Positions 9,988 through 55,470 of a stretch of DNA of 64,000 nucleotides are shown here, piece by piece; position 1 is the first letter of the stretch, and each line of letters starts with the position of its first letter. Source of the stretch: Minisyncoccia bacterium. GTDB lineage: Bacteria > Patescibacteriota > Minisyncoccia > Phycocordibacterales > UBA918. The notes beneath the pieces are model-generated. The model was not told the DNA's origin and did not search any database. It saw only the letters and a list, made by a program, of their open reading frames with translations. The translations under genes were made by a program, and so were the position numbers. The stretch covers positions 62,602 to 126,601 of the forward strand of contig JBGSPE010000003.1 of assembly GCA_041738755.1 (NCBI GenBank), in the 5' to 3' direction.

Positions 9988-10020
9988 ACAAAAGCCGGCC
10001 CCTCTAGGGCCGGCTTTTGT
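9988..10020 (-). terminator. Rho-independent terminator downstream of gene 10041..12980
   Basis: Stem gccggccc(9994-10001)/gggccggc(10006-10013) with a TCTA loop, plus an A/T run; read on the minus strand it is stem then UUUUGUUGUUUUU. Confidence 0.6.
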
Positions 10021-10040
10021 TGATTTAAAGAAATGAGAGA

Positions 10041-12980: not shown

Positions 12981-13191
12981 AAATTCAATACTCCGACCTA
13001 CCAGGTTGCGGTACGCGAGAGTAACAAAGTCTACGAAACTATGTGTGAGAGAACTGTGGCCAGTAAAGTGTACCAGCACCTGATAATTTATAATATACCA
13101 TATATTGAGTTTTGTCAATAGTTATAGGCTTTTGTACTTCTCTTAAACAACCTCTCGTAACATTGCCTAAGCTGGCCAATCTGCTTGATTC

Positions 13192-17265: not shown

Positions 17266-17295
17266 ATTAGATGTCATTTCTGAGAGGAAGTCGAA

Positions 17296-17793
17296 ATGGA
17301 AGATGTTCTTAATCAAGAAGCAGAGACCACTCAACATATACCGGTTGTGGCAAAAATCCTGCTTGCGGTGTTAGCCGTTACTGCTGGTTCACTCCTCAAC
17401 AGCTCAGGTGGGGCACTGCTTGCGGGCATTGCTGTATACCTCGCTTTCAAGACAGTTCGGAACACATCCGGGCATGATCGATGGTTACTCATCACTGCCG
17501 GTATCATCGGCCTCAATGTGAGTCTTACCACCCTGTGGTATGGGGTAATCGGCAACTACGTTGATCCTGAACTGGCGCCAATCTGGTCGAAGTTTGAGTG
17601 TGATTACTCAGGCGGAAGCGATGTGTACTGCCCCAGTTACGTTACTGATAAGCGGGACAAAATCCTGGCGAAGCGAGGTGTCACTACCACCATTGTCTGG
17701 TGGGCTACTGGGAGCGCCCTTAATCAGGGCGAACCAGTCACGCACCACAATGTGCAAGGTCTGGCGATAACCTATTGGTTTCCCGAATTCTAA
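17296..17793 (+). CDS. Small integral membrane protein (165 aa), function unknown
   Basis: Strong promoter and SD; 3-4 hydrophobic helices; two Cys near the C-terminus ('FECDYSGGSDVYCPSY'). Confidence 0.6.
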   Translation: MEDVLNQEAETTQHIPVVAKILLAVLAVTAGSLLNSSGGALLAGIAVYLAFKTVRNTSGHDRWLLITAGIIGLNVSLTTLWYGVIGNYVDPELAPIWSKFECDYSGGSDVYCPSYVTDKRDKILAKRGVTTTIVWWATGSALNQGEPVTHHNVQGLAITYWFPEF

Positions 17794-34353: not shown

Positions 34354-35934
34354 TCACGTAAGAGTCTTTCGATACGAAACAAAGAGCAAGAACAAAAGTA
34401 AAAAGAGTAACGTGAGTGAGAGGAGTGGAATTTGATACGCTATGAAAAAATCTGGCCAAAATACCATCTGTTCTGAACTACGACTTGTGTAAAAATCAAT
34501 TATTTGCGAGCGAGTTCCCACCACGCGGGCCTCATAATCATAGATAGTAATCGTGAGACCTGAAGTGCCAGAAAGCATCAGTGGAGCAACCGTAGCTTCA
34601 TAGGCAGTATCGTCGTTATTTATTCGTAGAAGAAATGAGTATGATTTTCGATTGTCAGTTGGGTCAGTCAAGGTGGCGATAATAGTTTTAAGATTTTGAG
34701 CGATAGCAGATTTCGGGATTGAAACAAGAAATAGTTCTTCACTTTTTAGTGACAGTCCCTCACTACCAAATGAGTCAGTTCGGCTCCCCTGGGTAATAAA
34801 TATCTCTGATGGATCAGGCATTCTAAACTCTGGCAATAACCGTTCTGCTTCAGGTACTTCTATAACCGGAGGCGGAACGCCTATTAATCCACCTCCGCTT
34901 CCCTCCCCTCCATCACCAGTACTCTCGAAAGCGAAGACTTGTGCAATGGCTCCTGATGAAACGCGGCCAGATTGATCGACCACAAACGCTGTGTAGTAGA
35001 CAGGAGAATATTGTTCAAGAATGTTTCTATCAAGAAATGTCGTACCACTCCCCTGATAGATAACCGCTCCATCTTGTACATGAGTTGGATACCCCAAGTG
35101 GCTCCGGACAATGCGCACATATGAAAATCCCGCAAAGGTAGGTAGTTGCCAATTCAGCGCCACATCAGTGTTTTGTGCCACCGCACTAAACCGAACGACG
35201 TTCTCAGGAGCAAATAATGCTTCATTACCCAACGTCGTAAATTGCCCTCGCTCCAAAATAGAAGGGATACCTTGTGGTGAATACCCAATCACTTCATATT
35301 CATACACTGTCCCAGGCTCTAAGTCAGTGAGCGTAGTTTGATAGTCACGAAGGAACCGTTCGGTAGCAATGTACCCTAGCTCATATGAACCCGTTCTTCC
35401 CCACCGCACTTCAAAGCGAGCTGGCCTGGCAGTTTTAATAGCAAAACTCGTCGTCGAAAATCCTGATGAAATAACAAGTTCATCAAGTACCACTCTCGTG
35501 GCAGTACCACCGTTGCTTGTACTCGAAGCAACCACCGGGTCAGGTGGGGGCGGAGGCGTATCTGGTGTAGTGGTCGAAAGGGTCGATGACGTAGCCGAAT
35601 AATTCCCCGCAGCATCAAATGTTTGGACGTAATATTGATATGTCGTTGATGGGGAGAGGCCGGTATCAGAAAAATTCGTCTGCGTTGTGGTCGCAAACGG
35701 ATTATTGTCGCGATACAAAACGTAGCCAGCAACAGCAAAATTATCTATTGAGGCGGACCATACGACATCGATTTGCGTACTGGCAATCGGCGTAACTGAG
35801 AGTAAGGTGGGGGTCGTTGGCGCTTCGAGATCTTCACCACCAAATATCCTAATATTGAACTGCGAAGTATCTACCTGAGCCCAAGCCACGGAAACAAACA
35901 AGAACGTACTGAAGATAAGCGTAAGTACTTTCAT
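34354..35934 (-). CDS. Secreted Fn3-repeat protein with a C-terminal TM anchor (last gene of surface module 2)
   Basis: Signal peptide 'MKVLTLIFSTFLFVSVAWAQ'; three Fn3-like modules ('...YQYYVQTFDAAGNYS'); poly-Pro linker; C-terminal 'IPLLSLTLLFLLLFLLFVSYRK'. Confidence 0.65.
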   Translation of the reverse strand: MKVLTLIFSTFLFVSVAWAQVDTSQFNIRIFGGEDLEAPTTPTLLSVTPIASTQIDVVWSASIDNFAVAGYVLYRDNNPFATTTQTNFSDTGLSPSTTYQYYVQTFDAAGNYSATSSTLSTTTPDTPPPPPDPVVASSTSNGGTATRVVLDELVISSGFSTTSFAIKTARPARFEVRWGRTGSYELGYIATERFLRDYQTTLTDLEPGTVYEYEVIGYSPQGIPSILERGQFTTLGNEALFAPENVVRFSAVAQNTDVALNWQLPTFAGFSYVRIVRSHLGYPTHVQDGAVIYQGSGTTFLDRNILEQYSPVYYTAFVVDQSGRVSSGAIAQVFAFESTGDGGEGSGGGLIGVPPPVIEVPEAERLLPEFRMPDPSEIFITQGSRTDSFGSEGLSLKSEELFLVSIPKSAIAQNLKTIIATLTDPTDNRKSYSFLLRINNDDTAYEATVAPLMLSGTSGLTITIYDYEARVVGTRSQIIDFYTSRSSEQMVFWPDFFIAYQIPLLSLTLLFLLLFLLFVSYRKTLT

Positions 35935-35942
35935 TCACTCTA

Positions 35943-36710
35943 TTATAACGGAAGTGCAGTCATGGTGCTGGTTGCTATGTAGAGACCGGAGGCTACTCCA
36001 GCATTCTGACCCACTCCCACACGAAACTTCACTGTAGTGGTGGAACCGTTGGGATGGTTAGGCTGACCTGAGCGAGCAATCAATATGTCATTAGTAGTTA
36101 ATGCTCTCCAGCACCGATCTGTAACATTTCCTGTACCAATATTACAGGCAATACCATTGTCTCTAAATGTTGAACCTGCATGGATTCCTTCGACTGTAAA
36201 TCCAAAAAATGCTTCCCCATCGCCTACCTCAAACAGGAAGTCTGGAGTTGTTGTTGCTGGATAATTTGCGATACTATCAGTTGGGCTATTCATAGCAGGG
36301 TCGTTCGGGGTCGTAATCGTCAAGCTGTAGCCGGACGGACTATCAGTTGTAACGACGACACTAGTTGATCCATTAGAGGTACCACCACTCAATCCGCCAA
36401 TATCAGGGCTAAGGAAGACCTCAGTCGCATCACTGATACTAATAAAGACCTCTTGCATCTGCTGATAGCCCGCTCGCAAGCTATACGTGGTACTGTCAGA
36501 TGGTCCGGTTGCCGATTCTCCAATCGTACTTTCAAGTGAAAAAGAGTCTGATTCAGAAAGCCCACCACCATTATTGATGCTATCGCTTTGAATTTGATAA
36601 TTGCTACTTGAGCGGACTTGCGCAAACCCCAGCTGAAGGCTGGTCAAAATGAGGGTGGTGCAAATCAAGGCGGTAAAAGAATCTTTGAGTAACAGAGAGA
36701 GCATAGTCAC
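35943..36710 (-). CDS. Small secreted beta-rich protein, paralog A (WxL/TasA-like size and layout; conserved Cys pair)
   Basis: Signal peptide; 'GIACNIGTGNVTDRCWRAL...TTTVKFRVGVGQNAGVASGLYIATSTMTALPL'; paralog of 37773..38486. Confidence 0.6.
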   Translation of the reverse strand: MTMLSLLLKDSFTALICTTLILTSLQLGFAQVRSSSNYQIQSDSINNGGGLSESDSFSLESTIGESATGPSDSTTYSLRAGYQQMQEVFISISDATEVFLSPDIGGLSGGTSNGSTSVVVTTDSPSGYSLTITTPNDPAMNSPTDSIANYPATTTPDFLFEVGDGEAFFGFTVEGIHAGSTFRDNGIACNIGTGNVTDRCWRALTTNDILIARSGQPNHPNGSTTTVKFRVGVGQNAGVASGLYIATSTMTALPL

Positions 36711-37750
36711 TATGCCTTACGCTTAAATTCAAATCGCTTAAAGAAAAGTCGGAAACTAAAAATAAAAATGAGGAGAATGAGAAATATTCCACCAATAATT
36801 TTATACGGAATTACCCAGAAAGAGGTCGTGACGGTATCTACGATATCATCGTAACCACGATTTATTTGCGCTGTAACAGTATACCGGCCAAGGAGCAATT
36901 CTCTGTCCCAGGTGAGTTCACGCACCCGCAGTGACTTCGGTAAAACAAACCACGGTTCAAGCTCAATGTATCCTACCTCTTCACCAAACATATTGGTGAT
37001 AGAAATTTCTCCGTACGGATTCACATGAACAGACCCGGTATTTTCATACAAAATTCCCAAATCAATAGGACCTTCTTGGTACCACCAGGCATCACCTACT
37101 GTACTAATACTTTTGGTTTCACCTGAGGTTTCAATGTCTCCTTCAACAGTAATGAAAAAGAGTGAACCAATCCGAGCAATAACTGGTGACCGTGGTCCGT
37201 CAGCAATTTGATTCTCATCAATGCGAACGGTAGAGACTAAAACACTACCGTAGTAGCCCCCTGGTTCTACGTCTGGTGGGATGCTGATTGTTACAGGAAT
37301 ACGAGCTCGCTCACCAAGCTTCAGCTGGAAGGTATCTTGCGGCACCGATACATAATCTCGAATACTATACGGACCGCGAGTTTCACCAGTCAAACTGGCC
37401 GCCCCACTTCCATCAGTACTTCCAACAATATCTTCAATTTCTAACTTAAATTCTCGATTGTCACTAATTCGGTTGGTAACCGAAATTTCTCGGACTACTG
37501 TTTGTCCTGGTTGTAAAGCAATTTCAGTTCGGCCTGGACCAACCACAAAATCTCCGACCGCAATGTCATTACCAGAGATTTGTTCAGAGACGTACCAATT
37601 TCCTGATGGAATAGCACTATCCGGTGTGGTGGTCGGTGTTGTGGTGGCACCCGGAAGAGTTTCATCAGCTTGTGCACCAACTTCGAAGGTAGGTAGTAAC
37701 AGCGTTACAAAAAGAAAGAATATGAGAGCTTTTTTGCCTGTAGTCGCCAT
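36710..37750 (-). CDS. Secreted protein with a C-terminal TM anchor and basic tail (DUF916-like arrangement)
   Basis: Signal peptide 'ALIFFLFVTLLLPTFEVGAQA'; ~300-aa beta-rich ectodomain; C-terminal 'IIGGIFLILLIFIFSFRLFFKRFEFKRKA'. Confidence 0.6.
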   Translation of the reverse strand: MATTGKKALIFFLFVTLLLPTFEVGAQADETLPGATTTPTTTPDSAIPSGNWYVSEQISGNDIAVGDFVVGPGRTEIALQPGQTVVREISVTNRISDNREFKLEIEDIVGSTDGSGAASLTGETRGPYSIRDYVSVPQDTFQLKLGERARIPVTISIPPDVEPGGYYGSVLVSTVRIDENQIADGPRSPVIARIGSLFFITVEGDIETSGETKSISTVGDAWWYQEGPIDLGILYENTGSVHVNPYGEISITNMFGEEVGYIELEPWFVLPKSLRVRELTWDRELLLGRYTVTAQINRGYDDIVDTVTTSFWVIPYKIIGGIFLILLIFIFSFRLFFKRFEFKRKA

Positions 37751-37772
37751 AATCTGTGACCTTCAGGGTACC

Positions 37773-38486
37773 TTATATATTAAAGAGAGACAAGGTCGCT
37801 GTTGCGGTGTAGGTTTGAGCTGTTAGGGCTGGTGTTGCCGCATTAGGAACATGCACTCGAAATTGCAAGGTAGTTGTAGCTCCTGTTGGGGCAGCTGAAC
37901 CCCGGTTTACAATTTCAAATGGCGTTGTACTTGGTGCTTTCCAGCAGTGCTCTCCTGTGTCAGTACCAGCTGGTACATTACAGGCATTTGAACCGTTATG
38001 TAAGAAGGCATCAGCAGTATCAGGAGTCGAAGAAGAGAAGACTGAGTACGCAAATTGGGCAGATCCAGTTGTTGTAAAGTTATATGAAGGAAAGCCACCT
38101 ACGTCCCCAGCATAGTCAACGATTGATTCACTGTCATCAATATCTCCAATCATAGCTTGCGGGGTGCCATTATCGAAGAAATCAATCTCAACCCGATAGC
38201 CAGCCGCATTGTTTGAAAGGACAGAGAATCTCGTTGTACCAGTCGCATTTCCTCCCGTGAGACCATTGATACTACCGGCCATAGTGACATTCACTGGATC
38301 CACCAAGAAAGAACTCTCAGCAATAATAGTCTGTCGAATCCGAAAATCAGGCGTGGTATCAACCTGTCCCCGGCTGATTTGTGGCTCAAACGTAAAGTAA
38401 CTGGCAAACAAGACAGTCATGAGCGCAACGGTTATAACTAATGATTGCTTACTAATGAGCAAGAGGTTTTTAAGTGGGACGTTCAT
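37773..38486 (-). CDS. Small secreted beta-rich protein, paralog B
   Basis: Signal/TM '[16 protein letters not shown]'; '[19 protein letters not shown]...[34 protein letters not shown]', same Cys-x12-13-CW and C-terminal pattern as paralog A. Confidence 0.6.
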
Positions 38487-38587
38487 AATGGTTTTAATTT
38501 TATACTCTTATTTTATAATAATTTTGTGGGTTTTTTCGTCAAAATTGAAGGTTCTGTGTATAAGTTACTCAAGTAAAAGCAGGATTT

Positions 38588-41500
38588 TTAGATATCTGCG
38601 CCTCCCCCGCTACCACCACCTGACGCTTGGTTGTAGACTCGAACCTGGATTTCATCCAAGCTAAAGACACTTGTCTGATCAGCAGTTAATCTCACTCTGA
38701 AATTTGTATTACTAAATTCTGCTACAGACCATGGTGTTCGACCCCACAAGTCTGACGGTCCGCCCGCAGTCAAAACCACATCCGAACTGGCGACATTAGT
38801 TAACTCTTTGGTATCAGTCCATGATGAGCCACCATCCCATGACAACTGAGCGGAGAGTATAGCGGTTGGATTTGAACTTCTTATCTCCAATTTTATTTCA
38901 ATACCCTGGATAGTATTACCAGTATTTATTGGGAAACTATGATTTTGCCAAACTGAAGGATTAGTGTTATTGGCAATTGCACGCGTTTCATCAACCCCAT
39001 CATAAGAATTAGCAATATCTCTCCAACCACTACCTCCTGTTGGCCGTCTAAAATTTGGATCATTCCCAATCTGCTCACCCGGACCAGCCCCTCCACCAAC
39101 AACAATCCCGTCACCCACAGGTGCTTCTCCTCCAATATCACTCGCTCGTCCTCCCCCGCCACCGCGTGATTCAAATCGACTATGTTGCCTTGGACTCACA
39201 CTACCGAAGATATCTTGTACTCCATTTTCATCTTCAGCCACCACTCCACCAGGGTAGAGATTAATAGTCACGGCAGAGTCTCTTGGTGGAGCATTCCAGT
39301 CAGCTACTACGAGGTAATTTTGTGCACTTGAAGTACTAATAACAAAATCTTCATTGAACACAATTGTGCCAGTCTCTGACTCAGCATCAATTATCATAAC
39401 GCCAGTGCCAGCAATCACTTCATCACCAGCAAGCCCTCCATTAAACTCACCACTAGGCATTAAGTCTCTCACGAGTCGAATATTGGTAAAGTCTGCGGAA
39501 TCAATATTAGTTACACCACTCAAATCAAAAGTAAGACTGGTCAAAGTCGCAGTACCACTTTCAGGAATGAGTTTAAAAGCAAATAATTCCTCGTCAGTCT
39601 TGTTTTGGAAATTAAAGGCGTTACTCACCTGCCCCTGATCATGGTTTGCAATAGTGCTACTACCACTGATTGCCTCGTTTACAAAGAACCAATTAGTATT
39701 ATTGCCACCATCAACAGAACTAGTGGCCGAGATAGAAGTAGAAGCAAACGAATCCTTTACATCGACAAACTCTACATTAATTTGTGAGCCAGACACATCA
39801 AGCCCCCACGCTGTCCCACTTGCAGTAGAGCGAAGATATACTTCGTTACCAGCAGTACCAGCCAAATCGATATTTTGGATAGTACTGGTTGCTCCTGCCA
39901 AAAATGCCGCTGACGTACCGGGGAGCATCGTATAGGTATTTGTCACAGTTAGTGGTGCACCGTAGGTTACCGACTGAGTGGTGGAGCCATTTTGTGATTC
40001 GTTAGTAACAGTTAGATTATAGAATTCAAGCGTTCCTGTCGCTACCTGCGCTGCCACACCACCAAACACAACCGTACTCGTTGCCGGTTCAAAACTTCCC
40101 GCGTTTGTAAAGTCACCTAATATAGATAACTCATCTGTGACTTTGAGACTACCGTTTTGGGAAATTTGTACATCACTGGTTGAAGCGGTAACGATGTTGG
40201 CCGTCTGGCCAATGACTTGACGGTTATTTATAAGTGAATTCACCCCACCATCATCTCTAAATCCAACCACAACATATAATCCTTCTCCAAAGGTAACTCC
40301 AGTTGCAAATTGATCCCCAGCAGAACTCGTCAGAGATTGTGGACCCCAAGTAATACCATCGGAAGACGTTATCGCCGTAGGCACAAATGCTAACAGATCA
40401 AAATCAATTGTACTTCCAACAGCAATAAATTCGTTGTTACCATACTCCACATCATACAAGAAGCCAGCAAATCCCGGAGTCACACCAAGACTCCAGTCCG
40501 TCCCATTATTTGAATACATAATGACATCACCAGTTTCATCTGGCCCTAGTGCGCCCACCGCTACAAACTGACCATTTCCATAGGTGACGCTTTGCCAATC
40601 ATCATCGTTGCCAAGGGCCGATTGAGCTGTCCAATTGATGCCGTCTGGTGAGGTCATAATCCTAGTAGTACCCGTTGCTGCCACCGCCACAAAGAGGCCG
40701 TCACCGTAGGTTACCCCAGTCCAGGAATCATCATTGCCCGCTGCCGAGCGGTCAGTCCAAGTGACACCGTCGGATGAAGTATAGATACGATTTTCGGTAC
40801 TGACAGTGGTATCACAAACTTCACCAGTAAGTCCGCAAGATACCGCAACAAACAAACCATCTCCGTACGTAACGCTTTGCAAAGGAACCGAGGCAATAGT
40901 TTGAACTATCCACGTGATGCCGTCGGATGAGGTCATGACTCGGTCAGTACCTGGTCCATTACCAACCGCTACAAACTGACCATTGCCGTAGGTGACACCT
41001 GCCCAAGCGTCGTTATTTCCAGCAGCCGACTGAGCAGTCCAGGTTTCGCCATCGGGTGAGGTCATCACAGCATCTCCAACGCCAGTGGCGTCACCGACTG
41101 CCACAAACGTACCGTTACCGTAGGCGATATCTAACCAAGCATCATCATTATTTACCGCACTAATCGAATTCCAAGACGCACTGGCTTGAAATACACCATC
41201 CACCACCACATCATAGAGTCGATTGGTACCACTAAAATCACCTGTTAAATCGCTATCACTACCACTCAAATACAAGGTAGTGTTAGAAAAATCAATATCT
41301 CCGTTTTGGGTAAAATCTCCCGTGACGGTTAGTTCAGTGTGCGGATCCAAGGTTCCACTGCTGGAAATCGTAAGGTCAGTAACAGATACATTAGTAATGA
41401 AATCAATAGTACCAGTAACAGCGACATCACCAAGCTCTGGTGTTGCGACGGCAGTAGAGACGGTTTTGTTGCTACCGCTCAAGAACAATGTGCCGTCATT

Positions 41501-45739: not shown

Positions 45740-45742
45740 AGG

Positions 45743-48700
45743 TTAGCTGGTTGGTTCACTTGGAGTTGGTAATGGTTCTGGTTCGGGAGTTAGCTCTGGT
45801 TCTGGCTCGGGTTCTGGTTCTGGTAGCGGCTCAGGGGTTGGCTCTGGTTCTGGAACTACCGGTTCCACTGGTGGTTCAACGCTTGGCTCTGGTGGTCCGC
45901 CTTCCCCGCTTTGACCACCTCCTCCACTCGTTTCATCAACTGATTCCTCATCTGTTGGTTCAGCTGGCGGGTTTGGTGGCTCTGATTCAGGAGTTGGTTC
46001 TGGTTGTACGGGTGCTGGAGTGCCGTCAATATTATTGTTATCAAGCAACTGCCGTAAATCATTGGCGTCGATACACACTCCATCCACACACAATTCTTCT
46101 TTTACCTCGATTCGGTTCGTCTTAATGCCAGCCACTTGTAGGATTCCGTCAACGAATCCTTGCGCCAGAGATACCAATCTATCAAACAGTGTCTCATCAA
46201 TATTTTCTCCTACCGTTTGAACTGATGATGTACTCATAAGCGAAGCTAGGCTAGCCGCTTGCGTTTCACCGATGAAGCGGTAGCTCAAATCAACAAACAT
46301 CACGATTTGTCCTACTTGTACTGATTGACCATTAACATCCCGAGTCTCACTTGGCGTACCAGCCAACCCTGCGAGCTGCTCTGCCACACTCTGATCTGCC
46401 AAGACTTGATTAGCACTATTAATCTGCTCAATCATCGATTCGCCGTTCAAGGGCACACACGGTGAACCATTATCAGCTCCACCACCGTAGTAACATCCGT
46501 CATGGACCCGTGGATCATTTGGGTCAGTGATTGGTTGGTATACCGGGTCAACCAAATCATCACCAAACTGATTGATGAAGGTTCGAGAATATTTTCGTGA
46601 TGAATCAAAGTCTTCAAGCGCGATACCAACAACCGTACCTGTTGCAGTCGCCTTCATTGCTACCCCCGGAAGTGAAGATAATGTCAGTTGATCACCTTTT
46701 TTAATTGGACCATTTTCAGTTGAAAGTTGAATTGGGACACGACCTGAGAGCGCAATTGGATACGCCGTCTCACCAGCTCTCGTTGACTCATCATCTGCTC
46801 CCATTAATACACCTGGCTTAGTTGAGACCACACCGATAATCGGGTCAGTTCCTTCATCTGCCCGAACCACTGAAAGCTCACCATCGAGTGAAACAATTTC
46901 TCCGGTCTCAAGTGACTGGCTTGAGAAATACATTTCAGCGAGGTCAGAGTTACCGGTGAATTGTGAGACTGAAGCAATTCGTCCTTGCACTGACGCAATA
47001 CAAGCACCGTCATTGTCGACACAGATACCACCTCGTCCGATTTGGAGTCCAGCCATATTGGTTCCGTCTCCAATCGTCGTCGTACCGTACGCAGTTACAT
47101 TAAAGACTGATGTATTGGTGTTACGGAAATCAACAAAGCGTGAGGTGGTTGATGAGAATGACCCGCCACTGTTACCAAAGTTAAGCTCAAGTCCTGTTCC
47201 AGTAAAGGTCGAGGTATCTTGGAAGAGGCTCATGAGTGTTGCGCTTGTAATACTTGAAGAGAACCCGCGAATGGCATTGCCCTGCGTAGTGCCTCGCGTC
47301 TGGAAGAAGCCTCCAGCTGGAGCTAGTACGCCACCAGCATCCCCTTCAGTGATACCCCGAACTCCAAAGGTTCGTCCCGTTCCAGAAATAGCCGTATTCT
47401 CTCCTTGTGTATTGCTACCCCGGTTGGTTTGAATCTCAAGACCTCGAACCGTATTTCCAAAAATGGTATCGTCTTCAACCCGAAAAATACTGCCGATGAT
47501 AGTTGTGGTAGCGGTGTTATTTGCATCAAGGTTAAAGAAATTACCGTATTGCAATGCCCCATTAGAACTATTGGTAGTCGTAATCCACTGCTGAAGCGCT
47601 GCGGTACCAGTACCAGTGAGACTATCTACCTGTAATGCCAACCGAGAACTTGGTGATGTCGTCCCAAGGCCGATGTTGCCGGTAGTGAGGTTACCGTATA
47701 GCGCATTCCCAAGACTCAAGAAGTTACTCGTACCACTCGTCGGTAACTCTATGTTGTCACCAATTAAAATATTGTTACTGCCCGTACTCGTGTTACTACC
47801 GGTATTATCACCAAGGAAGATATTGTTGTTGCCGGTTACACCCGCACCAGCAAAATTACCGATGAAAATATTTTCCGTCCCCTCACTATCTGTACCAGCT
47901 GATTGACCAATGGCGATAGTGTAGTCTGCTAAGGTATCACGGAGCGCCGATGTTCCAAGAGCGATATTGAAATCCCCAGTGGAAGCAAACACCCCAGCAT
48001 CAGTACCTATATAGGTATTATTACTTTCTGTTGTGAGGCTAAAACCAGCACTTTTACCGAACAATACATTACCATCTCCACTAGTCACAGACCCTCCTGC
48101 GCTAATACCAAAGAAGGCATTGTTGCTACCAGTCACACCACTATGCATGTCATTAAATTCATTCAGTCCAAACGCTACGTTGTAATTAACATCATTAGCT
48201 GACAGTAACCCATCTCCGTTGTATCGCACAATTGAACCAGTCGTGAGATTAATATCCCCTGCAACGGTAAGTCGACTACTTAGAGTAGTCGTCCCGATTC
48301 CGATATTTCCACTAGAATCAATCAACATCCGAGATGTTCCACCGACTGAAAACCCTAACGTATTAGTACCACCAAACATTCCAGTATCGGTATCATTTTC
48401 AAATGAAAATGCCGGCGCATTAGCGAGACTGGTACTTAAACGTGCGAGACCAACACTACTGATATAAGCAGCTCCGCCAAAGTTAAATTCTCCTGTAAAA
48501 TCTCCAGTGACACCGCTCAAAGTACCAGTAACATTTGCGTTACCTGCGACAGTGAGGAGTTGAGATGGGGTAGTGGTACCAATCCCCACATTACCACTCG
48601 CATCAATCCGAAGTCGTTCGGTGCCAGCAGTGGAGAAACCAAGAATATCAGTACCACCTCTGAACATACCGGTATTAGTATCACCACTAAAAGAAAAACT

Positions 48701-51700
48701 TGGTGAACTAGTTGACCCATCCATCATTCGAATACCAAATAAGTCAGTGATGTTATAGTTCAAACTTGTGAGATTTATTTGATCGGACGTAACGTCAAAT
48801 TCTAAACCTTGAATATAAACACCCGTAATGCCTCCTACACCGACCCTTAAATCATTACCATTATCAGCAATCACTAAATCTGCAGTGGAACCAGAATTAA
48901 TTTTAAATCCATTATTTCCAAAACCAATTGAGCCTACGTCTCCTCCGTCACCATCATTAAATTGAATCAAGGTACTTGGTCCAGCGGTAGCAATATTATC
49001 GAGTCCGCCTTGGATCAAAAGACCTGAGCGATTGGCATTATTACCATCATTCAAAATAGCTGCCGCAAAGTCTGCCGCATCTGCAAAGACATTGAGGCGT
49101 GAGGTACCACCGGTACCACCAATTGAGAGATTGTCGGTGAGTGAGGTGAGGTAGGTGTTAGCACCTCCGTCAGTGAAGAGTGATGCTCCACCTGAGATTC
49201 CAAGTGTCGAAGTCGCCACCCAGTTAAACCCTGAGCCAGTGCTCTGGAGGACCATACCGTTTGAGCCGGTACTTGAGGCGTTGTCGACGAGGGCTCCGGT
49301 GATACGAACGCCGCCAGCGACTGTGAGACGTTGTGAGGGAGTGGTGGTTCCGATGCCCACGAGGCCACTGGCGTTAATACGGAGGCGTTCGGTAGCAGCG
49401 GTACTAAAGCCAAGTTGGTTGTTGGCTGCCGAAAACATTCCATTATCAGCGTCCAAATCGACACCGAAATCAACGTTAGTTGGACTACCTGCACTATCAG
49501 TAGTGTATCTAAAAGCTTCGATGATTCCAGAGGTATTATTATAATACAGACTACCATCACCAAAGTTAACACCCGATGAATCAATGACTAACATTTCAGT
49601 GCCTCCAGCTCGTACTGAAATTACATTTGAAGACTCTGCAGTAATTCCCGTATCAGCATCCCCTACAAAGCTAAGTCCGCCGGTACCGAGAGCCCCTTGA
49701 GCCAAGAAAAGTGTGTCCGTAAAGAGACCGCCGCCAGCAACGGTGAGAGCTTCACTTGGTGATGTGGTACCGATACCGATATTCCCGCTTGCATCAATGC
49801 GGAGACGTTCGGTACCGGCAGTTGCAAAACCGAGAATATCAGTAGAGGTACTAAACATACCGGTATCAGTATCTCCGCTAAATGAATACACAGGGGTAAC
49901 TGCACCACCTAGCTTACCAGGCGTAATTTTAAAACTTCCATCGATAAATGATCCTGGTAGATCGAAGCGAAGATCAGCTCCCCCATACACTTCAAAGTCT
50001 CCACCTTGAACATACAGATTCGTTATGTCAGCGCCGGCAGTTGAAATGCCACCGCCACTTAAAAACTGAGCAGCAATTGCTCCATCAACTGTCGCGACGA
50101 GAGCGCCAGAAGTGCGATAAAACCCAGTATCAGTATCAGCTGCAAAGGTAATAGACGGAGCACTAACAGTTCCTGTTGCTGCCCGAAACGCCCCTGTCAT
50201 CGCGACTGAACCATTAGCCAGGAAGTCTCCAGACCCGAAGCCAAGCGTACTGGTTGCTACCCAATTAAATCCAGAACCAGTGCTTTGGAGGACCATACCG
50301 TTTGAACCAGTACTTGAGGCGTTATCAACCAAGGCTCCCGTGATGCGGACACCGCCAGCGACGGTGAGACGTTGAGATGGGGTGGTGGTGCCAATCCCGA
50401 CAAAGCCATTACTATTTAATATAGTCAGGTCAGGTGCAATCAAATTTCCCACAGCTGAAAAACTCAAATTAGCATTTAACGATTGCCCAATCGAAGCACT
50501 ATCTGGAGTACCATCAGCGTCACTGATAAAGAGCAATTGCGCTACGTTCCCAACCCCAACATTATCATTTGTCGATAAAATAAAGTCGACCTGTCCAGTA
50601 TTTTTATGAATGTGCAATAGACCTTCAGGAGTAGTAGTACCGATGCCGACATTCCCACTCGCACCAATCGTCAATCGTTCAGTACCATTTGTACTAAATC
50701 CAATGAGTCCATAATCAGAACTGAACATACCACTACCACCAAAGTTAAACTGTGGTGCCGATTCGGTACTTGTTCCAAATGACTTAAACGCCACTGAATT
50801 CACACCTCCAGGATCAATAAAGGTTGAAACGTCAAAAAATCCAACTTCAAATTCGTTTAAAAATATTGACGGCACCCCGTTAGCGACCAGTCTTATTTCG
50901 CCCGCTAATTCACTCTCAATTCCAGTATCCGTATCTCCAGCAAACGAAATTCCTCCGGTACCGAGAGCCCCTTGAGCCAAGAAGAGAGTATCTGTCATGT
51001 CGACAGAGCCATCCGCGAAAAAGTCTCCGCCGCCTCCGCCAGAAATACCCAATGTCGACGTCGCCACCCAATTGAAGCCGGTGCCGGTACTTTGGAGGAC
51101 CTGTCCTGTAGTACCACTGGCATTATTGCTATCAAAGAGGGCTCCGGTGATACGGACGTTACCGGCAACTGTGAGACGCTGACTTGGAGTACTTGTCCCA
51201 ATTCCCACGTTGCCACCGCCCGAAATAGTCAAAATATTTGTATTTCCTCCAGCACCAATATTAAGATTACGACTTGATTGTGTTGAGTAGATAAATGCAT
51301 CTAAATTCCCTGATGTTTCAACTCCCATAAACAGATCGGGTCCGGCAACATTACCATGATCAAACCTGATTTGATTGTTTGTAACATTAATTTTCGCACG
51401 ATCTTGATTCCCCAGGTCAGTCTGTACTGTAAACACCTCATTCCCCGTATCATCAAATACCGCCAATGCTCGAGCTTTAGAATCCTGAATGGTTAAAGTT
51501 CCAGGAGGTGATGTGGTGCCAATTCCAACATTTCCACTACTCAACAGAGATAAGGCTGGCGTTGAAGAAAGTCCACTTGCCGAAGCGTTGGTACCAAGGT
51601 AAATATTTTGTGCTCCCAAAAATAATTCGTTTCCAGTGTAAATTGCCGCGTCGTTCTCAACCGAAAAACCATTCATGACGTTGGTAAGCGTTGACAATGA

Positions 51701-53674
51701 TGAGTACTCACGAATGAAAAAATCTCCCGAACCACCAGCGCCCGCTGCCAGACGCAGTTCTGCGGCAGCAACAGTTCCATTTGTAGTATTTTGAATGCTC
51801 ACCCCTCGAGCAGTATTTCCTGTACCGACCACATGCAGCTGGGAAGTAGGACTTGAAGTCCCAATTCCCACCTCACCCGAGAGTCGCTCAATCGCAAAAA
51901 ATGGTGAATCATCAAAACTTGAGCCGGTATCAATTGAAAATGTATCTGTAGCCGCTCGGTAGCCCTGGATAATTTGAGGATTACCATTTGATAAAAAGCG
52001 CATAGCAGTGTCACCACTAGAAATATTATCGATATCCACTCCAGTAAATGAACCATTGGTTGAAATGAAGGTAGCTACGACAGCCTGATTATCAATAACT
52101 GTGAATTTTCTTTGTGGTGTACTTGTTCCAACCCCAACTCCCCCACCAGCGGTAACAAACACGCCCTCATCACCTCCATCACCAGATAACCAGTTTGAAC
52201 CAAGTGCAATGTTGGCAACTGTACCACTCATAGTAAGGGTTGATGAGAGTGTCGCAGCAGCCGCATTCACAGTACCAGTGAAGGTTGGTGAGTCAGAGAA
52301 GACCGAGAAGCCTGTGCCAGTTTCGTCAGAGAGTAACGCCGCAAGTTGAGCTGAGTTGGTAAATGAAGATGAGAAACCAAGTGTTGAAGTGGCTACCCAG
52401 TTAAACCCAGTACCAGTACTTTGAAGAACTGAGCCATTTGAGCCAGTTGAAGATGCGTTATCAACCAATGCTCCAGTGATGCGTACACCGCCAGCGATAG
52501 TGAGGCGTTGTGATGGAGTGGTGGTGCCGATACCAACAAAACCACTATTCACCACTCGCATCGCTTCAGTCGCTCCGTTGTTCCCCACTCCAAAAATAAT
52601 GGCATCGGTGGTTCCAACTCCGGTAGTTGAGCGTAGAGTCAGGGTTGAACCAACTGCCGTACCACCATTTACGAGCGGTGCAATAATCGAGGTAGTAAAG
52701 GTCGGAGTGGTTGAAAAAACAACGTTCCCAGTTCCAGTTTCATTAGTGATTGAACTAAGGAGTTGGGCTGAGGTAATACTGCTGGCTGCAGTACCGTACA
52801 GTGTTCCACTTGTCGGTAAGGTAAGCGTTGTAGCTGCAGTAGTGGTAAACGTTAAGTTATGGGCACCCGTTCGAGTAAAGGTATTAGCTCCAATAGTAAA
52901 GGCGCCAGGCAATACTGGAGTACCGGTGAATGTTGGTGACACAGAAAAAACAACATTCCCTGTGCCTGTCTCATCACCCAAGATGGCAGCGAGTTTGGCA
53001 GAGGTATCAATACTTGTCGTACCAAAGAGTCCCAAGGTTGAAGTTGATACCGTCAATACTCCACCCGTATTTGTAAGTCCTGTACCTGTTAAATCAGTGA
53101 AATTCTCACCGTTGATAACGAGGTTGGTCGTGGTAGCAGTCTGTGACGTGAGATTTGTAATGCTTGAAGAGGCGCTTGAGATTAAACCGCCAGTGAAGGT
53201 GAGAAGACCTGAAGCGGTATCTGCTTGATCTGAACGGAGGAAAGACGTAGATGCGACACCACCAACTCTTTGGGCTTCAAAGGCGGCTGGTACGGTTCCA
53301 AATGGTTTCCGAGGGACCATCTCGCCATCACCTTCAACATTGATAGAGAGAAAGAGCGGTTGATTGAAATCAACCGAAGAGAGTGGCGTGGTTGAACCAA
53401 GCATGATTGAAAAGAGACCGTTCACGACAGACACTTCATTGGCACCAGTTAGTGTCTCAGTCCAGAGAAGTGTACCGCCCGTCACTGCCGTATAGAGACG
53501 GAACTCCATGGCGTATGGGCCGTCGGCGACAGCGAGTCCGGTGGGGTCAGTGAGCTTACCTTGGTAGTTGATGGTGGGGGTGGGTTGGGCCAAGGTATTC
53601 GAAATAAAAACAACATTGCTCACGAGCAACGTGGCAAAGACAAATCCTGTGATGAGGCGCAGTGACTTCATCAT
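45743..53674 (-). CDS. Giant secreted fibre-like protein (2643 aa) with repeated 'GNVGIGTT(T/S)P...LTVAGGVRITGAL' modules, a possible auto-chaperone-like region, and a Pro/Glu-rich C-terminus
   Basis: Signal peptide 'LITGFVFATLLVSNVVFISNTLA'. >4 near-identical ~50-aa modules 'GIGTTTPSQRLTVAGGVRITGALVDNASSTGSNG(M/S)VLQSTG(S/T)GFNWVATSTLG'. C-terminal 'NSDLAEMYFSS' region. Final ~90 aa 'PEPEPEPEPELTPEPEPLPTP'. Confidence 0.7.
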   Translation of the reverse strand: MMKSLRLITGFVFATLLVSNVVFISNTLAQPTPTINYQGKLTDPTGLAVADGPYAMEFRLYTAVTGGTLLWTETLTGANEVSVVNGLFSIMLGSTTPLSSVDFNQPLFLSINVEGDGEMVPRKPFGTVPAAFEAQRVGGVASTSFLRSDQADTASGLLTFTGGLISSASSSITNLTSQTATTTNLVINGENFTDLTGTGLTNTGGVLTVSTSTLGLFGTTSIDTSAKLAAILGDETGTGNVVFSVSPTFTGTPVLPGAFTIGANTFTRTGAHNLTFTTTAATTLTLPTSGTLYGTAASSITSAQLLSSITNETGTGNVVFSTTPTFTTSIIAPLVNGGTAVGSTLTLRSTTGVGTTDAIIFGVGNNGATEAMRVVNSGFVGIGTTTPSQRLTIAGGVRITGALVDNASSTGSNGSVLQSTGTGFNWVATSTLGFSSSFTNSAQLAALLSDETGTGFSVFSDSPTFTGTVNAAAATLSSTLTMSGTVANIALGSNWLSGDGGDEGVFVTAGGGVGVGTSTPQRKFTVIDNQAVVATFISTNGSFTGVDIDNISSGDTAMRFLSNGNPQIIQGYRAATDTFSIDTGSSFDDSPFFAIERLSGEVGIGTSSPTSQLHVVGTGNTARGVSIQNTTNGTVAAAELRLAAGAGGSGDFFIREYSSLSTLTNVMNGFSVENDAAIYTGNELFLGAQNIYLGTNASASGLSSTPALSLLSSGNVGIGTTSPPGTLTIQDSKARALAVFDDTGNEVFTVQTDLGNQDRAKINVTNNQIRFDHGNVAGPDLFMGVETSGNLDAFIYSTQSSRNLNIGAGGNTNILTISGGGNVGIGTSTPSQRLTVAGNVRITGALFDSNNASGTTGQVLQSTGTGFNWVATSTLGISGGGGGDFFADGSVDMTDTLFLAQGALGTGGISFAGDTDTGIESELAGEIRLVANGVPSIFLNEFEVGFFDVSTFIDPGGVNSVAFKSFGTSTESAPQFNFGGSGMFSSDYGLIGFSTNGTERLTIGASGNVGIGTTTPEGLLHIHKNTGQVDFILSTNDNVGVGNVAQLLFISDADGTPDSASIGQSLNANLSFSAVGNLIAPDLTILNSNGFVGIGTTTPSQRLTVAGGVRITGALVDNASSTGSNGMVLQSTGSGFNWVATSTLGFGSGDFLANGSVAMTGAFRAATGTVSAPSITFAADTDTGFYRTSGALVATVDGAIAAQFLSGGGISTAGADITNLYVQGGDFEVYGGADLRFDLPGSFIDGSFKITPGKLGGAVTPVYSFSGDTDTGMFSTSTDILGFATAGTERLRIDASGNIGIGTTSPSEALTVAGGGLFTDTLFLAQGALGTGGLSFVGDADTGITAESSNVISVRAGGTEMLVIDSSGVNFGDGSLYYNNTSGIIEAFRYTTDSAGSPTNVDFGVDLDADNGMFSAANNQLGFSTAATERLRINASGLVGIGTTTPSQRLTVAGGVRITGALVDNASSTGSNGMVLQSTGSGFNWVATSTLGISGGASLFTDGGANTYLTSLTDNLSIGGTGGTSRLNVFADAADFAAAILNDGNNANRSGLLIQGGLDNIATAGPSTLIQFNDGDGGDVGSIGFGNNGFKINSGSTADLVIADNGNDLRVGVGGITGVYIQGLEFDVTSDQINLTSLNYNITDLFGIRMMDGSTSSPSFSFSGDTNTGMFRGGTDILGFSTAGTERLRIDASGNVGIGTTTPSQLLTVAGNANVTGTLSGVTGDFTGEFNFGGAAYISSVGLARLSTSLANAPAFSFENDTDTGMFGGTNTLGFSVGGTSRMLIDSSGNIGIGTTTLSSRLTVAGDINLTTGSIVRYNGDGLLSANDVNYNVAFGLNEFNDMHSGVTGSNNAFFGISAGGSVTSGDGNVLFGKSAGFSLTTESNNTYIGTDAGVFASTGDFNIALGTSALRDTLADYTIAIGQSAGTDSEGTENIFIGNFAGAGVTGNNNIFLGDNTGSNTSTGSNNILIGDNIELPTSGTSNFLSLGNALYGNLTTGNIGLGTTSPSSRLALQVDSLTGTGTAALQQWITTTNSSNGALQYGNFFNLDANNTATTTIIGSIFRVEDDTIFGNTVRGLEIQTNRGSNTQGENTAISGTGRTFGVRGITEGDAGGVLAPAGGFFQTRGTTQGNAIRGFSSSITSATLMSLFQDTSTFTGTGLELNFGNSGGSFSSTTSRFVDFRNTNTSVFNVTAYGTTTIGDGTNMAGLQIGRGGICVDNDGACIASVQGRIASVSQFTGNSDLAEMYFSSQSLETGEIVSLDGELSVVRADEGTDPIIGVVSTKPGVLMGADDESTRAGETAYPIALSGRVPIQLSTENGPIKKGDQLTLSSLPGVAMKATATGTVVGIALEDFDSSRKYSRTFINQFGDDLVDPVYQPITDPNDPRVHDGCYYGGGADNGSPCVPLNGESMIEQINSANQVLADQSVAEQLAGLAGTPSETRDVNGQSVQVGQIVMFVDLSYRFIGETQAASLASLMSTSSVQTVGENIDETLFDRLVSLAQGFVDGILQVAGIKTNRIEVKEELCVDGVCIDANDLRQLLDNNNIDGTPAPVQPEPTPESEPPNPPAEPTDEESVDETSGGGGQSGEGGPPEPSVEPPVEPVVPEPEPTPEPLPEPEPEPEPELTPEPEPLPTPSEPTS

Positions 53675-54429
53675 GGCGATTGTTGATTAAGTGGAACAGT
53701 GATGACAGGAATTTCAGCGCCGATGATTTCGCTCTGCCCATTCACTTGACTCACGAATTTCTGCCCTGAAGCATCGGTGCGAATGACAATCCGATCAGAA
53801 AATAAATCTTGTAACTCTAGTAATTCACCTTCACTCAGCTGTGATGGGAGTAGCAAAATTCCTTCCGTACTCGACGCAAAGCTTCGTACCTGATCAGGTA
53901 CTGTTTTGAAATCTGCGGTATAGACGTCTGCTTCTGGTGTTGATGCAAGAGTGGTCACCACCGGAGGTGCAGGCGTCACATCAGTGGCCAAGAGTGAAAG
54001 TGACGAGACTTTGGTACTGGCTACCTGGACCTCAGGATTGGTGAGTTGTGAGAAGGTATTCTCAAACAAGTACCCGCTAAAGAGTCCAAGGAAGACTGCC
54101 GCTGCCACGACCACTTTGGTGCGATTGGCTTTGACTCGGTGCGCCTTTGCTCGAGCTACCTTTCTTTGCGTCACCTCTTCTCGCAATGAGCGTTCCTGTT
54201 TTCTTTCTTCACTCAGTTTTTGTTTTCGGATGGATTGCTCAATCTCCATGATGGATTCGTAGTGCTTGAGTGACTCAACGTCGATGTACCACTGGCGGCC
54301 AATGTGGCTGGCGACGATTTTCCCCTCCCGAGCAAGTCTGGTGATGTAGTCACTTGAGTAACTGACGAGCGCGGTGGCTGACTTTATGCTGTGGAGTTTT
54401 TTGCCGTCGATTTCAAGAACCTTTGCCAT
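53671..54429 (-). CDS. Membrane-tethered HTH protein (excisionase/MerR-type HTH_17-like N-terminus, single TM, ~130-aa extracytoplasmic C-terminus), paralog 1
   Basis: 'HSIKSATALVSYSSDYITRLAREGKIVASHIGRQWYIDVESL', then a Lys/Arg/Glu-rich helix, TM 'VVVAAAVFLGLFSGYLF'. Its stop overlaps the giant gene start (ATGA at 53671-53674). Confidence 0.6.
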   Translation of the reverse strand: MAKVLEIDGKKLHSIKSATALVSYSSDYITRLAREGKIVASHIGRQWYIDVESLKHYESIMEIEQSIRKQKLSEERKQERSLREEVTQRKVARAKAHRVKANRTKVVVAAAVFLGLFSGYLFENTFSQLTNPEVQVASTKVSSLSLLATDVTPAPPVVTTLASTPEADVYTADFKTVPDQVRSFASSTEGILLLPSQLSEGELLELQDLFSDRIVIRTDASGQKFVSQVNGQSEIIGAEIPVITVPLNQQSP

Positions 54430-54494
54430 ACTGTTGTAACTTTAATTATAAAGCTAAAACGGGAAAAACTGGCAGGCAAAATGTGTATAAAAAA

Positions 54495-55427
54495 CTACGG
54501 GAGAAGGAGTAAAATATTTGCGAGTGCAACGTTCAAGCTTGAGTCATACTCACTACCTGAAGCAGAGATTTCTAAGTTGGTTGCCAAAAGTCCAAAACTT
54601 ACAAGGAAGGCACCGACGACCGCTAAGGCTGGTACTAAGAGACTGGTTTTTGTCGCTGGTTGTTGTGTCCGTGTTTTTGAAACAGTTGCTTTTGGAATAT
54701 TACCAGGGGTAAAAGATGTCGGAACGGTAGATTGTGCGTGAGTGCTTAGTGATTGTACAGACGGCGTTACTGAATGTCTTTGTACCTGGGGTTGAATTGG
54801 GCGCTTAACGGCTACTCCCGGACGTCGTGGGCGTATCATCACGGCTTTTTTAGCCACTGCAGGGGCAATGACTGGTATTTCCTCAGGGATTACAGGCGTT
54901 TCTTCTTCATCTGAGATATCAGCAATTACCAAAGTTCCTGACAACGCTACCTCAGGCAACGGTTCAGGCTTGAAATTAGTAGGTTTTTTATTCTCAGTAC
55001 TGATTTTAACCTTTTCTGAATCAGCGATATTGACGTTGAGCCGAGTTGGCTTGGAGTGCTTCTTCACACTCGGCATGAGTGACTGATCGTCTTCTTCGTA
55101 GGAAACCTCAGTCCGTGAATCTAACCCGTTTTGACCGAGAACGATTCTGGCTGTTTTATTTTTCAGATATGGTTCTACGGCTACCCGAGATACGTAGTTT
55201 TTACTTACTACTTTCTCTGTTATCTCGGATTCGTTAGTAGTCTTGTACTTACCATCTCGGTGCTCAATGAGTGAATCTTCGTGTATATACCATGCTCGAC
55301 CGACTAATCTCGCGTCGACTTTTTTAGCTCGAGCGAGCTGCCCGAGATAATCAGGAGTGTAGCGATATTTTAAAGCCAAGCTGGTAGCTTTAATATATTC
55401 TCGGCCATGAAAAGTAACTGCGTCCAT
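54495..55427 (-). CDS. Membrane-tethered HTH protein, paralog 2 (same N-terminal domain, long Pro-rich linker, TM near the C-terminus)
   Basis: 'EYIKATSLALKYRYTPDYLGQLARAKKVDARLVGRAWYIHEDSL'; TM 'LLVPALAVVGAFLVSFGLLATNL'. ATG at 55427 preferred over the TTG at 55433. Confidence 0.6.
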   Translation of the reverse strand: MDAVTFHGREYIKATSLALKYRYTPDYLGQLARAKKVDARLVGRAWYIHEDSLIEHRDGKYKTTNESEITEKVVSKNYVSRVAVEPYLKNKTARIVLGQNGLDSRTEVSYEEDDQSLMPSVKKHSKPTRLNVNIADSEKVKISTENKKPTNFKPEPLPEVALSGTLVIADISDEEETPVIPEEIPVIAPAVAKKAVMIRPRRPGVAVKRPIQPQVQRHSVTPSVQSLSTHAQSTVPTSFTPGNIPKATVSKTRTQQPATKTSLLVPALAVVGAFLVSFGLLATNLEISASGSEYDSSLNVALANILLLLP

Positions 55428-55443
55428 ACTCAAGTAGTGTATC

Positions 55444-55470
55444 AGAAAAACCCCTCTTGCAAGGGGCCCT
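55444..55470 (-). terminator. Rho-independent terminator downstream of gatB, ~20 nt before the start of HTH paralog 2
   Basis: Minus strand: CCCCU-UGCAAG-AGGGG followed by UUUUUCUGAU. Confidence 0.5.

Follow-up and report, generated by a model that had tools for sequence, protein, structure and literature searches.

Our analysis of a 64,000-nucleotide stretch of DNA from a Minisyncoccia bacterium (contig JBGSPE010000003.1; the whole stretch is called the window below) suggests that eight adjacent minus-strand genes at 34354-55433 encode a minimal surface fibre of the Pam/WxL type, one that manages without an usher and without an ATPase, together with accompanying adhesins. We put the probability of this reading at about 60%. 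The initial annotation could not assign the locus to a named system; we find it largely assignable, through the match of one small secreted protein to the PamT pilus family, through the relation of a membrane-anchored protein to WxLIP, and through the likeness of one of two giant proteins to phage tail fibres and to the MAT fibres of Bdellovibrio.

Two systems provide the frame for this assignment. The Pam pilus comes from Ca. Mycosynbacter amalyticus, a member of the Saccharimonadia and of the candidate phyla radiation (CPR), for which the pilins PamA and PamB have been solved (Troman et al. 2026, bioRxiv 10.64898/2026.03.03.709456). According to the same preprint, its parts are the pilins PamA, PamB and PamE, the proposed single-domain tip pilin PamT, the chaperones PamC and PamD, which are PapD/FimC-like and keep a C-terminal transmembrane (TM) helix, and PamR, a proposed anchor with FnIII, a TM helix and an extra N-terminal strand. 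PamA and PamB each have two domains, a beta-sandwich N-terminal domain and a truncated Ig-like C-terminal domain, with a linker donor strand between them; assembly is proposed to proceed without an usher by donor-strand exchange, the Pam pilins rank with the ten most abundant proteins, and a protein resembling tail fibres is conserved near the Pam operon (10.64898/2026.03.03.709456). The WxL (Csc) clusters of Enterococcus, Lactiplantibacillus and Listeria combine a WxLIP of 337-365 aa (DUF916, DUF3324 and a TM helix) with small and large WxL proteins, the commonest cluster having one WxLIP and two small or large partners; a beta-hairpin strand of WxLIP is predicted to enter WxL (PMC10599100).

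The eight genes, numbered g8 to g1 in the direction in which they are read, come from a six-frame list of open reading frames (ORFs), and they follow one another at distances of 65, -4, 3, 101, 22, -1 and 8 nt. They comprise two membrane-tethered proteins with helix-turn-helix (HTH) domains (g8 and g7), two secreted giants (g6 and g5) and a four-gene cassette (g4 to g1). By hydropathy the six downstream proteins g1-g6 have signal-like N-terminal segments, g3 and g1 have C-terminal TM helices at residues 318-336 and 502-520, and each HTH protein has a single internal one, at 104-122 in g7 and 265-283 in g8. The initial annotation had described eight co-oriented minus-strand genes with overlaps, two paralogous small secreted proteins, an Fn3 anchored protein, a propeller-repeat protein of 2383 aa, a fibre-like protein of 2643 aa and an upstream pair that joins DNA-binding domains to TM helices. 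The ORF list bears out the gene arrangement, and the individual descriptions hold on the evidence given below for each. Both overlaps are real, the ATGA stop/start at 53671-53674 between the 252-aa (g7) and 2643-aa (g6) genes without qualification and the 1-nt overlap at 36710 only if g2 starts at its GTG; an alternative ATG 6 nt downstream of that GTG gives the 253-aa product carried in public databases (P0121).

We begin with g3 (36710-37750), a membrane-anchored protein of 346 aa. In its AlphaFold2 model, with a predicted local distance difference test score (pLDDT) of 83.7, a signal helix and a short disordered stretch are followed by two Ig-like beta-sandwich domains and a C-terminal helix at 316-345. 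The best Foldseek match of this model is the WxLIP of E. faecium (9i1y/9i25, E about 4e-12), and the next are RbmA and then the chaperones CfaA, CsuC, Caf1M, DraB and FimC (E 1e-9 to 4e-6). The Pfam model WxLIP_PGBD (DUF916, PF06030) scores a sub-threshold 20 bits on g3 against a cut-off of 27.3, and it is matched in all 42 of 42 g3 family members (best E 2.4e-6). Moreover, the family profile, searched against the sequences of the PDB, has EfmWxLIP1 (9i25, 9i1y) as its sole match (E 3e-5); for DUF3324 Pfam gives no match in g3. By sequence and by modelled fold, g3 is a relative both of the Enterococcus WxLIP and of the chaperones of chaperone-usher systems, and we describe it as WxLIP/PapD-like.

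Conservation within the g3 family is high. The best 120 of its 1544 homologues are 59-82% identical to it, and the family alignment contains 92 invariant columns. Our locus scan used one genome per species and returned 111 stretches with relatives of g3, of which the best 80 were kept as loci; with two loci obtained separately this makes 82, across which identity is 46-70% for the chaperone-like g3, 29-53% for the Fn3 anchor g1 and 30-62% for the 237-aa pilin g4. It is unusual for a protein at the surface of a host-dependent bacterium to be, as g3 is, far better conserved than its neighbours. The NCBIfam Pam models gave no matches to g3, g4 or g1, even at E up to 10. A Paceibacteria metatranscriptome (PMC10936435) contains highly expressed PGBD proteins, which we considered as g3 homologues and set aside; the one gene traced, PMX_810_sub_00350, is 2079 nt long and so belongs to another family.

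On either side of g3 lie two small secreted proteins, g4 (37773-38486, 237 aa) and g2 (35943-36710, 255 aa from the GTG start), which are paralogous both as single sequences (BLASTP E 8e-11, 32% identity) and as family profiles (hhalign probability 100, E 1e-59). The match of g2 to NCBIfam NF058579, "CPR-type pilus protein PamT" (CPR_pilus_PamT), has an E value of 4e-11 and a score of 42.8 bits against an equivalog cut-off of 240 bits. The model is matched by 42 of 42 g2 homologues (best E 1.2e-14), and since all of these matches are sub-threshold, they support homology of g2 to PamT and not orthology. Both window proteins are single-domain (237 and 255 aa), unlike the two-domain PamA/PamB layout. 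Single-sequence and profile searches of g2 against the PDB found nothing. We rejected a WxL-domain identity for g2 and g4: Pfam WxL is not matched at E up to 0.1, there is no dual W-x-L motif, each protein having a single Trp that lies in a C-W-x-x motif, and the Foldseek matches do not include the WxL chain of 9i25.

A possible sign of strand donation in g2 is a highly conserved N-terminal extension of about 60-80 aa, which follows the signal peptide and precedes the beta-sandwich. In the AlphaFold2 model residues 29-108 have pLDDT below 50, and the C-terminal beta-sandwich domain (109-255) is confident; the best-conserved stretch of the family, at residues ~30-92, falls in this extension, with the consensus AQVRSSSNYQLQSDSINxGGGLS...ESTVGE...YxLRAGYQQMQEVF. 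Conservation combined with low confidence in the monomer is the pattern that a segment folding only against a partner would show, and we predict a donor segment at residues ~76-95 (LRAGYQQMQEVFISIS); g2 is the candidate shaft subunit. In place of such an extension g4 has a short N-terminal strand, DFRIRQTII, and its family conserves an F-x-I-x-QTI strand after the signal peptide (77 sequences). It is the first cassette gene in nearly every locus that covers the position, and we regard it as a candidate tip or cap subunit. The g2 family ends in a near-invariant ...TALPL, at which the protein stops exactly; neither this C-terminus nor the ...LFNI of g4 is a sorting signal.

The cassette closes with g1 (34354-35934, 526 aa), the last cassette gene in every locus that reaches so far. 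Pfam finds fn3 (E 3.7e-12) and the Fn3-like Pur_ac_phosph_N, and the protein runs from a signal peptide through an N-terminal strand, Fn3-type modules and a C-terminal domain to its TM helix, with no LPXTG before the anchor helix. Directly after the signal peptide stands a conserved F-x-I-R strand, in which F26 is more than 90% conserved among 72 sequences, and QFNIRIF is predicted as a donor strand. This architecture of FnIII, C-terminal TM helix and extra N-terminal strand agrees with a terminator and anchor of the PamR type, as PamR is described. A comparison of g4 and g1 profiles gave only a weak signal at their N-termini (probability 20%, E 1e-3), perhaps owing to the signal peptides.

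Natural gene fusions link these parts further. The pilin profile, searched against 1.84 billion representative proteins, matches 1536 clusters at 50% identity. In several of these the chaperone, with its TM helix, runs straight into a pilin signal peptide within a single ORF (read in P0254 and P0261), and in many further matches of about 450-610 aa the C-terminal end is formed by the pilin module. A complete pilin module also closes giants of 1205 and 2187 aa. The latter, a beta-helix-type adhesin-pilin fusion, occupies the g2 slot of locus L084 (5187-11750; JGI 3300032931), where it follows an HTH-TM gene, a g4-like gene and a g3-like gene. In L085 (6895-9590; ENA ERZ1292617) a 369-aa TM protein contains both HTH domains, g8-like and g7-like, and in a 529-aa ORF the chaperone with its TM helix runs directly into a g2-type pilin, signal peptide and body alike; this locus has no g4-type gene. 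Other relatives of the pilin, 330-365 aa long, have an extra N-terminal domain and are thus PamB-sized (P0318, 365 aa), and in L033 (10987-12801) a g2 pilin of 605 aa has some 340 aa inserted between N-terminal extension and C-terminal domain, in a PamA-like two-domain layout. We take these fusions as an argument for three working partnerships: chaperone with pilin, adhesin with pilin, and one HTH protein with the other.

Could the same proteins form a stoichiometric WxL-type complex that does not polymerise, in which a WxLIP-like g3 stabilises the two small proteins at the wall by strand insertion and the whole serves as docking platform or adhesin, in line with what has been proposed for the WxL clusters of Firmicutes? 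We hold this to be the most serious competitor, though a rather unlikely one. The closest relatives of g3 in sequence and in fold are WxLIPs, for which the insertion of a hairpin into WxL is predicted; the gene pattern is that of the commonest WxL cluster type (PMC10599100); and a polymer is, in the window locus, something that we infer. However, the small proteins have no Pfam WxL domain, contain a single Trp each and do not resemble the WxL chain of 9i25 in the fold comparison, and it is the PamT pilus family that they match instead. Moreover, their two-domain, PamB-sized relatives (P0318 and L033) resemble the solved Pam pilins, and the Fn3 anchor, which fits a PamR terminator, has no counterpart in WxL clusters.

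The fibre reading gains further from comparison between genomes. At least 111 Patescibacteria species carry a relative of g3, and all 80 listed loci have titles from the Patescibacteria group. Throughout the 82 loci the order g4, g3, g2, g1 is invariant where covered, usually with gap-rpiB next, which puts the arrangement well outside chance, and the HTH pair invariably comes first; synteny and comparative data thus support the initial idea of a cell-surface attachment or appendage system headed by membrane-tethered HTH proteins. The giants behave differently. In about 11 loci the HTH-TM pair after gatB abuts the cassette with no giant between; other relatives have a single tail-fibre-like giant; in four loci a tail-fibre-like giant lies downstream of the Fn3 anchor; and in many loci there is a protein of 463 to >3060 aa that has only its last ~350-380 aa in common with g5. 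Because they are absent, single, moved or fused to pilins in relatives, the giants are exchangeable cargo and not core. The constant unit is the HTH pair plus the four-gene cassette, so that of the self-contained eight-gene module first proposed this six-gene part stands, while the inclusion of the giants does not carry over to relatives.

Many of these loci are titled "uncultured Candidatus Saccharibacteria" and share with the window the gap-rpiB synteny and 65-79% GAPDH identity, as do loci labelled Kaiserbacteria or Nomurabacteria. On those loci the Saccharibacteria title is probably a placeholder and not evidence for Saccharimonadia.

The variability of the giants in number, type and position might suggest that the genes are unrelated surface proteins gathered in a hypervariable spot between gatB and gap, with no machine and no dedicated regulation. 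The window giants also lack a pilin module, and the promoter and terminator scans are uninformative. Yet the core order is invariant, with the HTH pair at its head, across 82 loci; fusions of chaperone to pilin, giant to pilin and HTH to HTH recur; and the core genes are separated by -1 to 22 nt, with g3 identity of 59-82% among its best 120 homologues. We therefore consider mere co-location improbable.

The giants deserve closer description. The first, g6 (45743-53674, 2643 aa), is a secreted tail-fibre-like protein. It matches tail-fibre PHROGs, phrog_9942 at E 5e-33 and also phrog_28766 and phrog_18345, and among PDB sequences it matches the Bdellovibrio MAT fibres Bd2133 (E 2.8e-7), Bd3182 and Bd2439, of which the tips have been crystallised. 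At 2227-2293 Pfam finds a Peptidase_G2 intramolecular-chaperone (IMC) domain, which scores 25.7 bits where the cut-off is 25, and this predicted autoproteolytic chaperone domain is followed by a Pro/Glu-rich tail at the C-terminus. Conservation in relatives is limited to the N-terminal ~150-250 aa. The MAT (mosaic adhesive trimer) fibres of Bdellovibrio are trimeric prey-recognition adhesins, so that tail-fibre-like adhesins of cells are established (PMC10769870).

The second giant, g5 (38588-45739, 2383 aa), is secreted too and consists of several Asp-box (SxDxGxTW) beta-propeller arrays with beta-helix-like spacers, at least 17 repeats of ~41 aa (~123 nt) each, which Pfam records as EPTP repeats. 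Its C-terminal module (about 2012-2383) recurs in 35 loci with 30-48% identity over the last ~350-380 aa, where it caps the otherwise unrelated 463 to >3060-aa proteins right upstream of the cassette, and it ends in a nearly invariant YHQAGGGGxGGGGxI-COOH (window 38588-39760, ~390 aa). We found no relation of this module to Pfam, PDB or pilins; it could serve as a signal for docking or sorting. Hidden Markov model searches and hhalign for a concealed pilin-like or donor module in g5, g6 or the Fn3 protein were negative.

Beside a related cassette, in L083 (13374-18664; JGI 3300029286, Ga0247841_10000256), lies a diversity-generating retroelement (DGR). The protein concerned, of 951 aa, has a g6-like N-terminus (AQINYQGKLTD...) and a C-terminal FGE-sulfatase/C-type-lectin-fold (CLec) domain, and behind its gene stand Avd genes and one for an RVT_1 reverse transcriptase. 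The variable repeat (16109-16233) and the template repeat (17291-17415) are 125 nt long and 86% identical, with all mismatches at adenines of the template. Since mismatches confined to template adenines are the hallmark of a DGR, we identify the repeats as such, and the targeting of a g6 homologue therefore supports a ligand-binding role under diversification.

That a giant so like a tail fibre (PHROG matches to E 5e-33, a Peptidase_G2 domain) might be left, with its neighbours, from a degraded prophage or tailocin is an idea that we reject as very improbable on housekeeping context and base composition: there is no other phage-type gene in the locus, the housekeeping flanks stand in conserved order, composition is uniform, the proteins carry Sec signals, and cellular adhesins of this kind are known in Bdellovibrio (PMC10769870).

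At the head of the locus are the two HTH proteins. The first, g8 (54495-55433), is a DNA-binding-type protein of 312 aa from a TTG start, or probably 310 aa from the in-frame ATG at 55427, the end point given in the initial annotation, which agrees with the starts of its orthologues; an N-terminal HTH_17-like domain of ~55 aa is followed by a long linker and the TM helix. In g7 (53671-54429, 252 aa) an excisionase/MerR-type winged HTH at 15-57 precedes a charged coiled stretch, the TM helix and ~130 aa outside. Pfam HTH_17 matches g7 with E 1.4e-4 in the window protein and with 27.4 and 27.0 bits in orthologues, at or above the cut-off of 27, and the N-terminal domains of g8 and g7 are paralogous (33% identity, E 6e-8). 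Because a basic, Lys/Arg-rich stretch precedes the single TM helix, we assign both an N-in, C-out topology. Orthologues of g8 lie immediately after gatB in 14 loci, and g7 directly precedes the cassette in about 11.

This design is ToxR-like, and judged from sequence a regulatory role is plausible. Of the earlier suggestion of self-regulation, the HTH_17 domain and the N-in topology are in keeping with a ToxR-like protein; on the other side, we found no DNA target, and promoter and terminator consensus scans did not rise above chance. One sigma70-like site (38515-38542, minus strand; TTGACG, 16 nt, TATTAT; 10/12 consensus) in the 101-nt gap before g4 hints at a separate cassette promoter and is a lead only, given that the scan as a whole was at chance level. 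A hairpin with a T-run between gatB and g8 (55451-55465, minus strand), a pattern match only, resembles a terminator and might mark the 5' boundary of the locus. The WxL-gene regulator RwpL (PMC13522541) was considered as a relative of these HTH_17-TM proteins and dismissed, as it is MarR-type and unrelated. In two distant relatives, L084 (1496-1696) and L085 (6394-6630), a divergent gene for a small (66-78 aa) soluble MerR/HTH_17 protein stands just upstream of the HTH-TM gene; the window has no such gene.

How could a fibre arise from so few parts? In the mechanism that we propose, the structural proteins would be exported through Sec, as their signal peptides indicate, and g3 would stay in the cytoplasmic membrane by its C-terminal helix and, to judge from its fold and homology, cap the incomplete beta-sandwich of a pilin. 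The extension of g2 would then be donated to the next subunit by donor-strand exchange, giving a thin linear fibre. Without a long extension, g4 would cap the distal end, and at the proximal end the N-terminal strand of g1 would enter the last pilin, with its TM helix tethering the fibre as proposed for PamR. The giants would be interchangeable adhesins for host or other surfaces, provided by the same locus, a trimeric MAT-like fibre in one case and an Asp-box propeller in the other. The window giants may associate non-covalently with the fibre or act beside it, which is the weakest step of the scheme. Domain, topology, position and fusion together suggest that g7 and g8 would act as paired ToxR-like one-component regulators, probably coupling transcription of the locus to an external cue.

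Several points weigh against the fibre. The case for it is built on genes and monomer models, from which polymerisation is deduced, and we know of no WxLIP, the protein closest to g3, whose partners polymerise. The PamT score of g2 lies far under the family cut-off, and most of the match falls in the signal peptide and the N-terminal extension and at the beginning of the domain. The window has no two-domain pilin of the PamA/PamB type, and the likeness to the PamC, PamD and PamR of M. amalyticus is drawn from descriptions of these proteins. Moreover, both window giants are without a pilin module and without a recognisable anchor, so that their tie to the fibre is positional only, and for the HTH proteins we identified neither an operator nor a promoter, the consensus scans for promoters and terminators being at chance level.

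More generally, we raise the tentative idea, which we would not yet bet on, that the cassette is the minimal form of an ancient superfamily of monoderm strand-complementation systems, usher-less and with a membrane-anchored chaperone, that would unite Pam pili with WxL/WxLIP. The pilin module might then be a universal "plug" for interchangeable giant adhesins (tail-fibre-like, propeller or beta-helix) that are partly diversified by retroelements.

How the ultra-small CPR bacteria attach to hosts and choose them is a central open question, and nearly all candidate genes are annotated as "hypothetical". The present locus is a defined and widely conserved candidate for the grip on the host, with an invariant core and hypervariable adhesin cargo, and the natural fusions predict which parts interact. 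A system of this kind is known only since the 2026 preprint (10.64898/2026.03.03.709456), which deals with Saccharimonadia and Microgenomatia; our analysis extends the Pam pilus to a minimal form in Paceibacteria-type genomes. The text of that preprint makes no mention of Paceibacteria or Parcubacteria, of WxL or of DUF916, and among the papers that our literature search returned none links WxL or DUF916 with CPR. What is new here is the minimal set of one chaperone with two single-domain pilins, a constant position between gatB and gap, the HTH-TM proteins that head the locus as a pair, the giants within the operon, and the link to WxLIP, which forms a bridge in sequence and fold from a CPR cassette to the WxL adhesion clusters of Gram-positive bacteria.

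The surroundings of the locus are housekeeping genes, gatB, obg and secA on one side and gap, rpiB, rpe, a split transketolase (tkt) and a PfkB-family kinase on the other, and base composition is uniform across the window. By its gene content and the homologues that carry names, the window belongs in the Patescibacteria, among genomes with Kaiser-, Nomura-, Parcu- or Paceibacteria labels. A second surface locus of the window, at 2947-13872 on the minus strand, consists of a sortase (13192-13872), a 1025-aa DUF11 protein (10041-13118), a 478-aa protein without a Pfam match (8483-9919) and a 1793-aa Fn3/CARDB protein (2947-8328), and may form, in the same genome, a surface or pilus system that depends on sortase.

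Among known systems, the sortase-assembled pili of Gram-positive bacteria differ from the locus in that the window pilins have no LPXTG sorting signal, the anchored proteins have no LPXTG before their TM helices, and the locus has no pilus sortase; the only sortase of the window is the one in the second locus, ~20 kb off. With the chaperone-usher pili (Pap/Fim, Csu, CFA/I, Caf1) the locus shares the chaperone fold and, if our mechanism is correct, strand complementation free of ATP. However, the window system would work without an outer membrane and without an usher (no usher-like gene was found in the locus or its relatives), its chaperone is membrane-tethered, and the candidate donor is a long conserved extension before the domain rather than a short N-terminal one. 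The MAT fibres of Bdellovibrio and phage tail fibres resemble g6 in their beta-helical fibre repeats and in a C-terminal chaperone domain of the S74/G2 type, and the MAT fibres further in a conserved N-terminus with mosaic distal parts and in that their bearer lives on other cells; g6, in contrast, is ~2.5 times longer, has a Gram-positive-type Sec signal and lies inside a pilus/chaperone locus.

There remain the WxL clusters and the Pam pilus. As to the former, g3 agrees with WxLIP in overall architecture, in length (320-380 aa being the range expected) and in modelled fold, with a sub-threshold similarity to the DUF916/PGBD domain. In both kinds of locus the genes specify a small secreted protein, a two-Ig protein with an anchor and one further partner; both include a "large" partner whose host-binding domains vary, and both are related to adhesion in monoderm cells. 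The differences are that the window partners are not WxL domains, that a Fn3 membrane anchor is present, and that one type occurs in Patescibacteria and the other in Firmicutes. With the Pam pilus the locus shares restriction to CPR, Sec-exported parts, the absence of usher and ATPase, a PapD-like two-Ig chaperone with a C-terminal TM helix (PamC and PamD being known to us by description), an anchor with FnIII, TM helix and N-terminal strand, a pilin related to PamT, and, nearby, a protein resembling tail fibres. On the other hand, the window has one chaperone where Pam has two, and two small single-domain pilins, with a PamT score far below the family cut-off, in place of pilins of the PamA, PamB or PamE type. 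Its immediate flanks are gatB and gap/rpiB and not ATP synthase and corB, two HTH-TM proteins stand at its head, and the giants lie inside the operon. Finally, the window type occurs in Paceibacteria-type genomes, with Kaiserbacteria and Nomurabacteria labels, whereas the preprint names Saccharimonadia and Microgenomatia for the Pam pilus.

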